Positions 589-4,443 of a DNA stretch of 4,443 nt are shown one piece after another. Position 1 is the first letter of the stretch. Each line of letters begins with the position of its first letter. The DNA is from a virus (taxonomy: Duplodnaviria; Heunggongvirae; Uroviricota; Caudoviricetes), in IMG/VR virus record IMGVR_UViG_2713896778_000022. One strand, 5' to 3'. Below the pieces are notes generated by a model. It ran no database searches. It was not told the origin of the DNA and was given only the letters and a program-made list of their open reading frames with translations. The position numbers were made by a program, and so were the translations under genes.

Positions 589-905
589 ATGCTCATAGAT
601 TTGGTTTTACCTTACCCGCCGACGGTGAACACTTACTGGCGACGCCGTGGCAGCACATATTTTATCTCGGAGGAGGGAAAGCGTTATCGCCGGGCTGTGG
701 CGCTTATTGTTCGCCAGCAGCGGCTGAAATTAAGCCTGTCCNNNNNNNNNNNNNNNNNNNNNNNNNNNNNNNNNNNNNNNNNNNNNNNNNNCATGCGGAA
801 GTGCTCATTGATGACGAGCAGTTTGATGAAATCAATATTGTGCGCGGTCAGCCAGTATCTGGTGGACGGCTGGGTGTGAAGATTTACAAAATTGAGAGTG
901 AGTGA
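589..905 (+). CDS. rusA: RusA-like Holliday junction resolvase, interrupted by an N-gap at 743..791
   Basis: ATG at 589 is preceded by AAGAGGTG (Shine-Dalgarno-like). The N-terminal segment MLIDLVLPYPPTVNTYWRRRG..EEGKRYRRAV resembles the RusA N-terminus, and the segment after the gap (..VRGQPVSGGRLGVKIYKIESE, stop TGA 903..905) resembles the RusA C-terminus. The two halves are in different frames of the ORF track (589.. and 582..), which is what an arbitrary-length N placeholder would produce rather than a real frameshift. Confidence 0.75.
743..791. other. run of 49 N (assembly gap or masked sequence) inside rusA
   Basis: Unbroken N characters; the reading frame differs on either side. Confidence 0.95.
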
Positions 906-913
906 GCGTAAAT

Positions 914-1444
914 ATGATATATCCGGAAATTACAGGCAAAAGCGGCGAACATTTACGCCTGAACACGCTGGAAGCAGTCTGGATCCAGGGGAAATTACGG
1001 ATGTGGGGGCGGTGGTCGTATATCGGTGGGGGTAAATCCGGAAATATGTTTAACCGGTTACTGGTTTCGAAAAAGCTGACGAAAACAGCAGTTAATGAGG
1101 TTTTACGCAGCATGAAGAAATCCGGGCTGGAAAAACCGGAACTTGAGGCATTTTTTCGGGATATGACCAGAGGGAAGCAGAAGAGCTGGTTGTCACATTG
1201 TACAGACACAGAGGCGTTGATTATTGATCGCGTTATCAGTGAGGTGCTTGGGGAATATCCCGGGCTAATCAATATTCTCCGGCAAAGGTACGAAGGACGG
1301 GGAATGAGTAAGAGAAAAATGGCAGAATGTTTAAATCGTACTCACCCGGAATGGTGTTTCAGCACATGTGAGAAACGTATTGCAGGTTGGTTAGCCGTGG
1401 CTGAACACATGCTTTATGTACCTATGCACGATTCATTTCGATAA
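914..1444 (+). CDS. phage late-gene antitermination protein Q (QuuD/phage-82-like family)
   Basis: The ORF runs 902..1444, beginning with a GTG that overlaps the rusA stop (GTGA); the first ATG is at 914. The N-terminal motif LEAVWIQGKLRMWGRWSYIGGG resembles the ..ERWGAWA.. motif I recall in QuuD-type Q proteins. It lies directly after rusA and directly before an intrinsic terminator, as expected for Q. The exact start (902 versus 914) is uncertain. Confidence 0.65.
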   Translation: MIYPEITGKSGEHLRLNTLEAVWIQGKLRMWGRWSYIGGGKSGNMFNRLLVSKKLTKTAVNEVLRSMKKSGLEKPELEAFFRDMTRGKQKSWLSHCTDTEALIIDRVISEVLGEYPGLINILRQRYEGRGMSKRKMAECLNRTHPEWCFSTCEKRIAGWLAVAEHMLYVPMHDSFR

Positions 1445-1540: not shown

Positions 1541-1562
1541 GCCACCGGAAGGTGGTTTTTTT
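1541..1562 (+). terminator. Rho-independent terminator (candidate tR')
   Basis: GCCACC-GGAA-GGTGG hairpin (5-6 bp GC-rich stem, GGAA loop) immediately followed by seven T (1556..1562). Confidence 0.6.
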
Positions 1563-1685: not shown

Positions 1686-2000
1686 ATGCTGAAACAGCAG
1701 GATATGACAGAAACCGCCAGAGTGGTGTTTAATGAATTAAGCGTCACCGAACCGGCGACAGTCGGGGAGATTGCGCAGAATACTTACCTTTCANNNNNNN
1801 NNNNNNNNNNNNNNNNNNNNNNNNNNNNNNNNNNNNNNNNNNNATTTGTGGTAAATGGGCGGCTGGTGGGTGTTAGGGGCACTCACCAGCCATCTGCTCA
1901 TGCGTTGGGGTCACAAGCAAACCTCAGGCCCATCTGCTTTGCGCAAAAGCGGTATGAGCCTATCAGAGAAGTGCTTATTGATCTATGGCTAATACTGTAA
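1686..2000 (+). CDS. small hypothetical protein, interrupted by an N-gap at 1794..1843; 3' end overlaps the methyltransferase start
   Basis: ATG at 1686 is preceded by AAAGGGAAA about 7 nt upstream. The first 36 codons read MLKQQDMTETARVVFNELSVTEPATVGEIAQNTYLS. After the gap only one frame stays open, ending at TAA 1998..2000, which overlaps the ATG at 1985. The ORF-track extension back to 1563 has no ribosome-binding site and overlaps the terminator, so I take 1686 as the start. Whether the part after the gap belongs to the same protein cannot be shown. Confidence 0.4.
   Translation: MLKQQDMTETARVVFNELSVTEPATVGEIAQNTYLSXXXXXXXXXXXXXXXXXFVVNGRLVGVRGTHQPSAHALGSQANLRPICFAQKRYEPIREVLIDLWLIL
1794..1843. 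other. run of 50 N (assembly gap or masked sequence) inside the small ORF
   Basis: Unbroken N characters. Confidence 0.95.
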
Positions 2001-3061
2001 AAATATCCAGTTGTGAGTTAATCAACGCCGACTGCCTGGAATTTATCCGGTCATTACCCGAAAATTCTGTTGACCTGATAGTCACGGACCCGCCGTACTT
2101 TAAAGTGAAGCCTGAGGGCTGGGATAACCAGTGGAAGGGCGACGATGATTACCTGAAGTGGCTGGACCAGTGTCTGGCGCAGTTCTGGCGGGTGCTGAAA
2201 CCTGCCGGAAGTCTTTACCTGTTCTGTGGTCATCGCCTGGCATCTGATATCGAAATCATGATGCGTGAACGCTTCAATGTGCTGAACCATATTATCTGGG
2301 CGAAGCCGTCCGGACGCTGGAACGGGTGCAACAAGGAAAGCCTGCGGGCGTATTTTCCGGCCACAGAACGCATTCTGTTCGCGGAACATTATCAGGGGCC
2401 GTATCGTCCGAAAGATGATGGCGATGAGGCGAAGGGCAGGGCACTGAAACAGCATGTGATGGCCCCGCTGATTTCTTACTTTCGTGATGCGCGTGCTGCT
2501 CTTGGGATAACGGCAAAACAGATTGCAGATGCCACAGGAAAGAAAAACATGGTGTCGCACTGGTTCAGTGCCAGTCAGTGGCAGCTACCGAACGAAAGCG
2601 ATTATCTGAAATTACAGTCGCTGTTTGCCCGGGTGGCAGAAGAGAAACATCAGCGGGGAGAACTGGAAAAGTCCCATTACCAACTGGTCAGCACATACAG
2701 TGAGCTGAACCGGCAGTATATGGAACTGCTGAGTGAATATAAAAATTTGCGGCGGTATTTCGGTGTGACGGTGCAGGTGCCGTACACCGATGTGTGGACG
2801 CATAAACCGGTGCAGTACTATCCAGGGAAACATCCGTGCGAAAAACCGGCAGAAATGCTGCGGCAGATAATCTGCGCGAGCAGTCGTCCGGGTGACCTGG
2901 TGGCGGATTTTTTCATGGGTTCTGGCTCAACCATAAAAGCAGCTATGGCGCTCGGGCGTCGTGCAACTGGTGTTGAACTGGAGGCAGAACGTTTTGCGCA
3001 GACCGTTAAGGAGATTAGTCACATCCTTACATGCTCAATTGATGACGGGAAGGATGGATAA
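1985..3061 (+). CDS. beta-class DNA methyltransferase (N6-adenine/N4-cytosine family; DPPY favours N6-adenine), orphan
   Basis: Intact 358-aa ORF. Catalytic motif IV, VTDPPYF, is at aa 33..39 (nt 2087..2098 encode DPPY). The AdoMet-binding motif I, FFMGSGST, is at aa 309..316 (from nt 2909). The order motif IV, then a long variable region, then motif I is the beta-class arrangement. Stop TAA at 3059..3061. No restriction endonuclease candidate is present in the window. Confidence 0.85.
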   Translation: MANTVKISSCELINADCLEFIRSLPENSVDLIVTDPPYFKVKPEGWDNQWKGDDDYLKWLDQCLAQFWRVLKPAGSLYLFCGHRLASDIEIMMRERFNVLNHIIWAKPSGRWNGCNKESLRAYFPATERILFAEHYQGPYRPKDDGDEAKGRALKQHVMAPLISYFRDARAALGITAKQIADATGKKNMVSHWFSASQWQLPNESDYLKLQSLFARVAEEKHQRGELEKSHYQLVSTYSELNRQYMELLSEYKNLRRYFGVTVQVPYTDVWTHKPVQYYPGKHPCEKPAEMLRQIICASSRPGDLVADFFMGSGSTIKAAMALGRRATGVELEAERFAQTVKEISHILTCSIDDGKDG

Positions 3062-3172
3062 AGATATGGTCAGTTCAGGCTGTGAAGCAAGTAGACAGAT
3101 AAGGCTGCAATAAAAACTGACAATAGTAAAATAGCTTTTTCCCAGGTAGTCATGAATACGATCTCTTAAAGC

Positions 3173-3192
3173 GCCCGCTGATACCAGCGGGC
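3173..3192. other. perfect GC-rich hairpin (8-bp stem, 4-nt loop) without a clean U-tract
   Basis: GCCCGCTG-ATAC-CAGCGGGC. On the + strand it is followed by AATACATA; on the - strand by GCTTTAAGAG. It lies about 110 nt downstream of the methyltransferase stop. It could be a weak terminator for either strand or an RNA stability or processing element. Confidence 0.3.
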
Positions 3193-4282
3193 AATACATA
3201 CTGGCATTAATGTTAAGTTCAGGGATAATTCATCGTATTTTGTGGTACGACGCTATCAATATTAATAAACAGTATTTTTCATGTAAAATTTCTGTTTTTT
3301 TTGATCTGATTCTCGTTTCCTGGGTTATGATGTTGTTGTGAACCATGCTGTTGAATGATAATGTTCGGGTATAAAATTGTTGCTGATATGTAGCGCAGTG
3401 AGCGGGTGGTATTTCTGTTGCTGAGTGTACGGATACAGTGCTTCCCTCCCTCAGCGGGGGGGCAGGTGTGCTGTGGTTTTAGAGACACCGGAAACGAGAA
3501 TGATGCGGGTTTGCTGGTGCCGGGATAGAGTCGCCGGAGGTCATGACATAGAGCAAAAAAGGAATGTGCATGCAAATACACACCTCTTCGGAGAGCTCTT
3601 CTTTATATGGATGAGCCTCAAGGTCAATAGTTTATCTGTTATGTATTCATATGTTGTTACTTATATAATCCATACGGGCATATCATCAGTACACACATAC
3701 TATTATGGCATTTTATTTTTGTTTTAACTGAATTCCCGGGGCACTCTTTTTGATTTCTGATAAGGAACCAGAATTTTCTGTTAAATGGTGTCACGTTGTA
3801 AATGGTTAATGGAAGCAGCTTATTATCCATAATCACACCTGAGTTAACAGGTGTGAGAATACTTCCGGGTGGCAGGAACACATCTGACTGATACCAGATT
3901 ATCAACTTTATTTTACACCATACAGTTGAAAACGTTATTCCGCTTGATGGGCATATCACTGTGTCAATAACTATCCATTCCATCTTTTAACCTTCTCGGT
4001 ACACATTGCTTTCGATTGTTTTGCTAAAAATCATAGTCAATAAATCAGTGTAACTCATTGATAAAGATCGTTTTCTTTGTCTTCCTGGGGGTTTCTTTTC
4101 TAATTTTGTATCACTTTGGTTCAAGTTGTTTCATTTTTTGTAATACAAATTAGCAGGATGAGCGGGAATATAAAAAAATCGGATGTTTTTGTAATGGATA
4201 TTATTTTTTGTAAAATAATGTATTTTTATTTAAATCTCTATCAGAAAAGAATTTATTGTTCCTTTATATGGTGGAAAAGGTC

Positions 4283-4443
4283 ATGGTATTTAAACACTAC
4301 GATGTGGTCAGGGCGGCATCGCCGTCAGACCTTGCTGATGCACTTGCGCAAAAAATTCGTGAAGGATGGCAACCATACGGTGGGCCGTTTTCTTCGTATA
4401 CGGATGATGGCGCAGCACTTATTCAGGCGATTGTCGCAGAAGG
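4283..4443 (+). CDS. small phage late-region protein (DUF1737-like), N-terminal 53 codons; 3' end lies outside the window
   Basis: ATG at 4283 is preceded by GGAAAAGG. The translation MVFKHYDVVRAASPSDLADALAQKIREGWQPYGGPFSSYTDDGAALIQAIVAE has the ..GW.PYG..dg..QA.V pattern I associate with the small DUF1737-type proteins found beside lambdoid lysis cassettes. The family name is from memory and not verified. Confidence 0.55.
   Translation, partial: MVFKHYDVVRAASPSDLADALAQKIREGWQPYGGPFSSYTDDGAALIQAIVAE

Follow-up and report, generated by a model that had tools for sequence, protein, structure and literature searches.

A GcvB-R1-like motif in a lambdoid prophage of Shiga-toxin-type Escherichia coli is probably an incidental look-alike

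Introduction

Prophage-encoded anti-sRNAs directed against GcvB do exist, as the original prediction for the DNA described here had stated. One of them is AgvB (EcOnc01a/b) of E. coli O157:H7, which stems from a moron locus whose architecture yields convergent Hfq-bound sRNAs, this GcvB sponge being one of them (Tree et al. 2014, PMC4104026). As a primary transcript, AgvB is 60 nt long; its seed lies 5-18 nt from the 5' end, and a conserved 3' domain of about 42 nt ends with GCCCGAACCCAUUCGGGCAUUUUUU. For the 3' region of AgvB, AsxR and EcOnc03, the pattern AGUAUCUCAUGCnnUUGCCCGAACCCAYUCGGGC(A)UUUU (~42 nt) was used in searches. The anti-sRNA family is characterised by transcripts of 51-60 nt, in which a seed complementary to a core sRNA is located within the first 14-18 nt. 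Its members originate between the moron CDS of a lambdoid prophage and the conserved ORF downstream of it, convergently with an sRNA of the plus strand, and they are abundant, bound by Hfq and less stable when Hfq is missing. A GcvB sponge of another kind is SroC, which is derived from mRNA by processing of the gltIJKL transcript; experiments have demonstrated both its processing and its function (Miyakoshi et al. 2015, PMC4474525). All these RNAs have to be compared with GcvB itself (Rfam RF00022), whose R1 seed region is attributed to Sharma et al. (2011), as cited in PMC5286369, and whose published target consensus is CACAACA (PMC4104026, PMC5286369).

Here, we describe a GU-rich motif resembling GcvB R1 in a 4,443-nt stretch of a tailed-phage genome (IMG/VR record IMGVR_UViG_2713896778_000022), which is hereafter called the window. 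The complementarity to GcvB is genuine and the predicted pairing is as good as that of the validated sponge. The motif is nevertheless probably an incidental look-alike, located in lineage-specific and compositionally biased spacer DNA.

Genomic context of the motif

The window represents the late-regulatory region of a lambdoid prophage, and the prophage is of the Shiga-toxin type that is carried by non-O157 STEC/EPEC strains of E. coli. Over the intergenic stretch 3062-4280, the identity to E. coli O121 RM8352 is 100%. From left to right, the window contains DUF968, RusA, a Q-type antiterminator, a small ORF, a DNA methyltransferase moron, 1.2 kb of non-coding DNA harbouring iraM, and a DUF1737/DUF6645 ORF. 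The features that allow a comparison with the AgvB locus in Sp10 of the Sakai strain are the following:

902..1444, plus strand: Q-type antiterminator (DUF1133/Phage_antitermQ), which marks the lambdoid late-regulatory region
1985..3061, plus strand: DNA methyltransferase, a moron CDS downstream of Q/PR'
3553..3606, plus strand: remnant of the plus-strand partner sRNA, terminator-proximal part, with 80% identity over 55 nt to Sakai Sp10
3657..3983, minus strand: iraM, encoding a homologue of the anti-adapter protein IraM, which fills the AgvB slot of Sp10
4283..4443, plus strand: start of the DUF1737/DUF6645 ORF (MVFKHYDVVR...), homologous to ECs_1961, which lies downstream of AgvB in Sp10

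In Sakai Sp10, the moron is followed by a plus-strand sRNA, by AgvB on the minus strand and by ECs_1961, and it is this plus-strand sRNA, the counterpart of the remnant at 3553-3606, that faces AgvB. In the intergenic part of the window, the methyltransferase gene is followed by a minus-strand sRNA-like gene, the spacer with the motif, the plus-strand sRNA remnant, iraM and the DUF6645 ORF. The motif is found on the far side of the remnant relative to the AgvB slot that is occupied by iraM. A cmscan search of the whole window matched no Rfam family, and no tRNAs were found in the window. The spacer itself has the following elements:

3309..3320: left arm of a perfect 12-bp inverted repeat, ATTCTCGTTTCC, which brackets the motif block
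3490..3501: right arm of the perfect 12-bp inverted repeat, GGAAACGAGAAT
3319..3552: larger block, for which no homologue was detected in STEC299 or Sakai Sp10
3323..3363: lineage-specific segment of 41 nt, which holds the motif and a minus-strand TATCAT (3360-3355)

The arms of the inverted repeat form a stem in the predicted folds. A MITE or another mobile element bounded by this repeat was considered and rejected, because the region is present in one copy per genome except for a single genome with two copies (30 places in 29 genomes).

Match of the motif to GcvB R1

On the plus strand, positions 3322-3344 read GGGTTATGATGTTGTTGTGAACC and are GcvB-R1-like, whereas the minus strand reads GGTTCACAACAACATCATAACCC and is CA-rich. 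The motif had originally been extended to position 3345, but this A lies one base too far. The E. coli GcvB sequence that served as a query was confirmed in the genomes: it was matched with 100% identity over 186 nt in 5426 of 5426 E. coli genomes, in which gcvB is located between gcvA and ygdI. The R1 region reads GGUUGUGAUGUUGUGUUGUUGUG, and the seed given in the original prediction was correct.

Two overlapping runs make up the resemblance. Positions 3323-3336 of the plus strand, GGTTATGATGTTGT, are identical to GcvB nt 63-76, GGTTGTGATGTTGT, at 13 of 14 positions, and positions 3331-3340, TGTTGTTGTG, are identical to GcvB nt 76-85. The single mismatch in the former run becomes a G.U pair in the duplex between a minus-strand RNA and GcvB. 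Given the match at 13 of 14 positions, the minus strand could form a 14-bp helix with one G.U pair:

3323..3336, minus strand: pairing segment ACAACAUCAUAACC, 14 contiguous bp possible with GcvB nt 63-76, one G.U pair

The CACAACA target consensus is present on the minus strand at 3340-3334. Outside the motif no similarity to GcvB was detected, and the resemblance stops at the motif ends. The GcvB covariance model was not matched (cmscan of the whole window, E<=1, 0 hits), GcvB-type hairpins or a terminator are not found around the motif, and the genomic context is unlike that of gcvB. The motif is not a GcvB homologue, and a captured gcvB fragment was likewise rejected.

The likeness to AgvB goes further. 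Both sites lie in a lambdoid prophage locus downstream of Q/PR' and a moron CDS and upstream of a DUF1737/DUF6645 ORF, both contain CACAACA, and in each of them the longest contiguous helix with R1 comprises 14 bp with one G.U pair. Of the traits of the anti-sRNA family, the seed complementary to a core sRNA is present (CACAACA and the 14-bp helix with GcvB nt 63-76). By analogy with AgvB, the motif, if expressed, would act by occluding R1. However, a short transcript of 51-60 nt with the seed in its first 14-18 nt is not predicted at the motif, and the AgvB/AsxR 3' domain has no match in the window at <=3 mismatches; among 24 loci, its pattern occurs in Sakai Sp10 only. Since both the 3' domain and the 5'-seed architecture are missing, the motif is not a member of the AgvB/AsxR family. 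AgvB itself was also rejected as an identity, because the published (Sakai) AgvB sequence is absent from the window, as is its 3' domain. Moreover, unlike the situation at AgvB, no strong promoter immediately precedes the motif in the window, the closest hairpin, at a distance of 130 nt, is part of another gene, and iraM occupies the AgvB slot.

Two further origins were examined. The stretch ...CATTATGATGTTGTCAGG... of Sp10 and STEC299, which encodes HYDVV, suggested a 5' remnant of the DUF6645 ORF, but it shares 12 nt only and the flanks are unrelated; this similarity was regarded as a coincidence. A coding explanation was also discarded. The motif is overlapped by small ORFs of 43 aa on the plus strand and of 38 aa on the minus strand (ATG at 3346), neither of which has a Pfam match or is conserved in the relatives. 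The plus-strand ORF is broken in STEC299, as read from the alignment, and the minus-strand ORF lacks a counterpart in the relatives because its start falls inside the lineage-specific segment. A GcvB target site formed by the CA-rich run at the beginning of the 38-aa ORF is hardly credible: the run would occupy codons 2-8, which is a typical position for a GcvB target, but there is no Shine-Dalgarno sequence upstream, and the missing Pfam match and counterpart speak against a gene.

Pairing strength compared with chance

The strength of the pairing was assessed with two measures. A raw RNAduplex scan with 30-nt windows told little, since G.U pairs brought many GC-rich coding sites to -28 to -35 kcal/mol, and it was replaced by a contiguous-helix test (>=14 bp with <=1 G.U pair against GcvB nt 58-98) and by an IntaRNA-like, accessibility-corrected score, which is the sum of hybridisation and opening energies. 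In about 90 kb of fetched prophage DNA, the contiguous-helix test retrieved two sites only, the motif and AgvB itself. A helix of this quality with R1 was obtained in 3 of 300 dinucleotide shuffles of the window and in 7 of 1000 shuffles of the intergenic region, which corresponds to a chance of p ~0.01 per window. The excess over chance is thus modest.

The accessibility-corrected energy of the motif with GcvB was about -14 to -15 kcal/mol in three assumed transcripts, equal to or slightly better than that of AgvB with GcvB (-13.1 kcal/mol by the same score). The motif is the best site of the window; other, unrelated sites reach -13.1 and -12.8 kcal/mol. The original prediction had named a pairing no better than that of shuffled controls as grounds for giving up the idea, and the energies came close to this: 26 of 200 local dinucleotide shuffles (13%) equalled or surpassed the motif (z = -1.26). 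The consensus CACAACA occurs in the window at chance level, with 2 occurrences against 0.97 expected.

The excess over chance can largely be attributed to the local base composition. The motif is embedded in a non-coding tract of about 200 nt, which is rich in G and T on the plus strand and in C and A on the minus strand. On the plus strand, the GC skew over 3280-3480 is +0.26 to +0.49 and the AT skew -0.2 to -0.45. The block 3319-3552 as a whole is GT-rich on the plus strand and C-rich and G-poor on the minus strand, with a C/G ratio of about 3, and between 3533 and 3323 of the minus strand this ratio reaches ~3.0-3.4 when taken over 78 nt at a time, which ranks in the top 1% of the window. 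The GT-rich tract, the 26 of 200 shuffles and the energies of the other sites together make thermodynamic prediction non-discriminating for this GU-rich seed.

The composition also invites another reading, namely that positions 3533-3323 of the minus strand are a rut-like Rho-loading region, which would end or silence untranslated iraM read-through and antisense transcription and of which the GcvB complementarity would be a by-product. The C/G ratio displays the compositional trait of such regions, the tract comes directly after the stop codon of iraM and is devoid of conserved ORFs, an intrinsic terminator is not predicted, and little structure is predicted for the RNA at the motif. However, this evidence is purely compositional, and the block is lineage-specific, with the relatives doing without it. 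A role in Rho loading is decidedly unlikely.

A neighbouring sRNA-like gene

The hairpin at 3173-3192 had been proposed as a possible 3' end for a minus-strand transcript across the motif. Its distance of 130 nt downstream of the motif on the minus strand was correctly given, but the hairpin belongs to a separate, conserved sRNA-like gene, outside of which the motif lies, and predicted transcription starts at ~3252 and ~3225 intervene. This gene and its promoter are as follows:

3165..3252, minus strand: conserved sRNA-like gene with a 5' stem-loop CGUCGUA[CCACAAAA]UACGAUG, followed by a linker and by a 3' part that is invariant and ends with GCCCGCUGGUAUCAGCGGGCGCUUU
3259..3306, minus strand: predicted promoter of the sRNA-like gene, TTTACA (3287-3282)-17-TAATAT (3264-3259), with an upstream A-tract

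Three divergent prophage lineages (STEC299, 2012C-4221 and SHP24) share the region 3120-3318 with ~80% conservation, and the minus-strand core AACTTAACAT.AATGCCAGTATGTATTGCCCGCTGGTATCAGCGGGCGCTTT is invariant among them. The 17-nt promoter spacing (TSS ~3252) is also kept in the three lineages. The predicted RNA would be ~88 nt long and has a 5' stem-loop with a variable loop. The closing pair of the stem is A-U, G-U or G-C across the three lineages; this suggestive covariation was rejected as evidence, because four sequences carry no statistical weight. The tail of the hairpin 3173-3192 consists of UUU only. The motif is located at about -70 to -92 from the TSS ~3252 and upstream of the predicted promoter, and it is therefore not part of the sRNA-like RNA. 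svsR (PMC12803456) was dismissed as well, since it belongs to a different locus, the 3' end of cI.

Lineage distribution

The motif region was found in 29 of 5426 complete E. coli genomes, with all copies >=98% identical (~99%). The carrier strains include E. coli O121 RM8352, O121:H19 16-9255 and O111:H8 1056-1, and a carrier copy is available as NZ_CP028110.1, positions 1088150-1089368. All 20 copies from the window lineage have the 41-nt segment 3323-3363 in identical form, and STEC299, 2012C-4221 and SHP24, the three divergent relatives, lack it. In IMG/VR, the motif is present in the same 18 contigs as the hairpin-core pattern, and in metagenomes searched by the hairpin-core pattern, the region was found in one of the three contigs recovered. 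It was not found in GTDB representatives or in the records of a phage collection. Neither independent occurrences nor motif-bearing divergent homologues were detected in IMG/VR, the GTDB representatives, the metagenomes searched by the hairpin-core pattern, the phage collection and the 5426 E. coli genomes. As the distribution is limited to one lineage, it offers no evolutionary depth for testing selection on the motif.

AgvB is much more widespread (652 genomes vs 29), and at least four of the motif-bearing genomes also hold authentic AgvB with 100% identity. Sakai, the strain of the CRAC/CLASH studies, is not among the 29 motif-bearing genomes.

Predicted transcription across the motif

For the minus strand, a single promoter was predicted upstream of the motif:

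3355..3383, minus strand: weak promoter GCAACA-17-TATCAT, TSS ~3348

Its score of 3.7 corresponds to about the 99.5th percentile of all positions, and its -10-like TATCAT (3360-3355) is part of the lineage-specific segment. The best minus-strand promoters are predicted between the motif and the hairpin, with starts at ~3252 or ~3225. The only evident source of minus-strand read-through across the motif is iraM. Its terminator candidate is weak and lies at about 3590-3553 of the minus strand, within 3553-3606, and no consensus intrinsic terminator was found in 3000-4443; read-through of iraM over the motif is therefore possible. In the minus-strand folds, the motif is predicted to be unpaired (ED 0.3-2.3 kcal/mol).

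These observations bear on the possibility that the minus strand encodes a functional GcvB decoy or sponge, which would not be homologous to AgvB and would present CACAACAACAUCAUAACC unpaired to R1 nt 63-76. The decoy could be a ~185-nt sRNA running from the TSS ~3348 to the hairpin 3192-3173, or it could be the long 3'UTR of iraM or a fragment processed from it, and, like AgvB, it would relieve transporters of amino acids and peptides from repression. Several points argue for such an RNA, among them the 14-bp helix with one G.U pair, which equals that of AgvB, the energy of -14 to -15 vs -13.1 kcal/mol, the rarity in window shuffles (p about 0.01) and the accessibility of the motif in the minus-strand folds. 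Moreover, the locus is a hot-spot for anti-sRNAs (PMC4104026), TATCAT is a candidate -10 element, and iraM and the motif have no strong terminator between them. An A-rich tract, which follows the motif on the minus strand, could bind Hfq, by analogy with the ARN-type distal-face sites of AgvB. However, the upstream promoter is weak, the conserved promoter that separates the motif from the hairpin is stronger, and the tail of this hairpin is just UUU. Furthermore, conservation is confined to one clone-like lineage, the energy is matched by 13% of the local shuffles for a match that was chosen post hoc, and at least four carrier genomes already possess authentic AgvB. Overall, a functional decoy appears unlikely. 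Of the complementarity to GcvB suggested originally for the minus strand, the pairing stands, with 14 bp as in AgvB, while the sponge is not supported, given the missing family domain, the lineage restriction and the weak promoter.

If the motif is expressed at all, the most plausible route, a putative mRNA tail from the iraM 3' region, would be reminiscent of SroC. In contrast to SroC, conservation of the motif is confined to one lineage and the motif is known here from sequence alone.

For the plus strand, a GcvB-like seed transcript had also been suggested. This RNA would act as a GcvB mimic on CA-rich mRNA sites and could arise from its own promoter or by processing of a Q-dependent late transcript. 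Indeed, promoter-like sites were predicted on the plus strand with starts at ~3296, ~3338, ~3371 and ~3384, the identity to R1 is 13/14, and the 12-bp inverted repeat could close a structured domain. However, the last three of these starts fall within the motif or beyond it, and a search of 3000-4443 gave no terminator on the plus strand. The Rfam GcvB family was not matched either, and the sequence is not conserved. In the plus-strand folds, the GU run is partly paired and no structural signal emerges (z = -0.2 to -0.5). Such a mimic is very improbable, and this part of the original prediction was not borne out.

A probable incidental look-alike of GcvB R1

The explanation that fits best, and which we consider probable, is that of a genuine but incidental look-alike. 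According to this model, the compositional bias of the ~200-nt GT/CA-rich spacer would have given rise to the resemblance to GcvB R1 in the 41-nt segment. There is probably no dedicated transcript that starts just upstream of the motif, and minus-strand RNA covering it would arise only by read-through from iraM or from the weak promoter at ~3348. In such an RNA, the motif would be unpaired and could titrate GcvB passively; nothing indicates selection for this titration. The absence of the family domain, the downstream promoters, the lineage restriction, the composition, the shuffles, the redundancy with AgvB and the non-coding nature of the region make the look-alike the most likely reading. 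Against it stand the ~1% rarity in shuffles, the helix shared only with AgvB, the rank as the best site of the window and the single-strandedness of the motif. The sRNA hot-spot (PMC4104026) and the lack of a strong terminator after iraM are further points against it, and a transcript starting at ~3348, if this modelled promoter were used, would place the CA motif at its 5' end, as in AgvB.

Implications

As it stands, the result is a cautionary one. The GU-rich seed of GcvB pairs well with any CA-rich stretch, and complementarity of the length seen in a sponge can therefore arise in biased spacer DNA. By predicted energy, AgvB, at -13.1 kcal/mol, cannot be told apart from unrelated sites of the 4.4-kb window, at -13.1 and -12.8 kcal/mol.

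It is rather unlikely that non-O157 STEC/EPEC strains of the O121, O111, O103 and O39 groups possess a second GcvB sponge, distinct from AgvB, that originated from a 41-nt insertion in the same moron locus and is expressed as an iraM tail or a ~185-nt sRNA. In E. coli K-12, the induction of iraM is reported to be PhoPQ-dependent and to occur at low Mg2+. If the sponge were real and the prophage iraM were induced like that of K-12, the stabilisation of RpoS by IraM would be coupled to the GcvB-dependent derepression of peptide and amino-acid uptake. An expressed decoy would also mean that phages have reached GcvB antagonism at least twice, with unrelated sequences at one hot-spot, and would thus represent a case of convergent evolution. 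This would strengthen the case for the rewiring of amino-acid and peptide uptake as a selected function of prophages in attaching-and-effacing E. coli.

The block around the GcvB-R1-like motif

The GT run that resembles the R1 seed of the host sRNA GcvB lies in a lineage-specific block downstream of iraM on the minus strand, with these features in and around it:

3309-3320 / 3490-3501: perfect 12-bp inverted repeat, arms ATTCTCGTTTCC / GGAAACGAGAAT
3323-3533, minus strand: C-rich, G-poor tract (C/G ratio near 3, which ranks in the top 1% among 78-nt windows)
3657-3983, minus strand: prophage iraM homologue (NCBIfam NF007393, E = 1.6e-42)

The arms of the inverted repeat, which are separated by 169 nt, enclose the block with the motif and form the closing stem in the minimum free energy folds of both strands. 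A repeated mobile element bounded by these arms can be ruled out because the repeat occurs only once per genome. On the minus strand, the C-rich tract lies just past the iraM stop codon, and its composition is similar to that of a Rho utilisation site. The region upstream of iraM is AT-rich and contains a promoter-like site at 4195-4167. In the Sakai prophage Sp10, the anti-sRNA AgvB fills the slot that is occupied by iraM in the window. Among lineage copies that are otherwise about 99% identical, a T-run (3293-3301) and a G-run (3455-3461) differ in length, the latter being part of the hairpin CCCTCCC-TCAGC-GGGGGGG.

Related loci and other R1-complementary sites

Relatives of the prophage region carry tRNA arrays between a conserved module and iraM/DUF6645 (L004 from STEC299, 2959-3188; L005, 2769-3075; L006, 2960-3112), which consist of Thr/Arg/Gly, Ile/Arg/Gly or Arg/Gly tRNAs. 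The lineage of the window has no such tRNAs. STEC299 has two copies of the module TGCATGGTGAATCCCCCTGTGCGG.GGGGCATAATGAC, one preceding the tRNAs and the other the plus-strand sRNA. Downstream of the STEC299 tRNAs lies a further feature:

L004 3244-3330, plus strand: small hydrophobic ORF (MLALAMIVIGFLGTCLFVYYIFVDN)

Ahead of this ORF stands CACACAACAAC, whose 10 nt are perfectly complementary to GcvB R1 and form a more conventional candidate GcvB target site. The longest R1-complementary helix among the fetched loci (20 bp with three G.U pairs, GCAAGCACAACAACATAATA) is found on the minus strand of L006 at 4064-4083. Since this site is antisense inside the DUF6645 coding region, coding sequence alone can yield such R1 matches.

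The region downstream of Q

1541-1562, plus strand: GCCACCGGAAGGTGG and then a run of seven T, a strong intrinsic terminator

This terminator is located about 100 nt downstream of the antiterminator gene Q, the position expected for tR', and a short PR'-derived RNA of the StxS/6S type is plausible here. Two runs of masked sequence (N; 743-791 and 1794-1843) fall inside the RusA gene and a small ORF downstream of Q.

A conserved sRNA-like gene beside the methyltransferase

3165-3306, minus strand: conserved sRNA-like gene, immediately after the methyltransferase gene

The predicted minus-strand promoter of this gene (TTTACA-17-TAATAT) has an A-tract upstream. The loop of the 5' stem-loop is CA-rich and differs between lineages (CCACAAAA, UCGCACGA or UCACACGG), as does the closing pair (A-U, G-U or G-C). 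The 3' part, which includes an 8-bp GC hairpin, is invariant and shows a loose likeness to the AgvB/AsxR 3' domain (CAGUAU..UAUUGCCCG..CGGGC.UUU). A search of Rfam gave no match for the gene. It may be a previously undescribed relative of the anti-sRNAs encoded by prophages.
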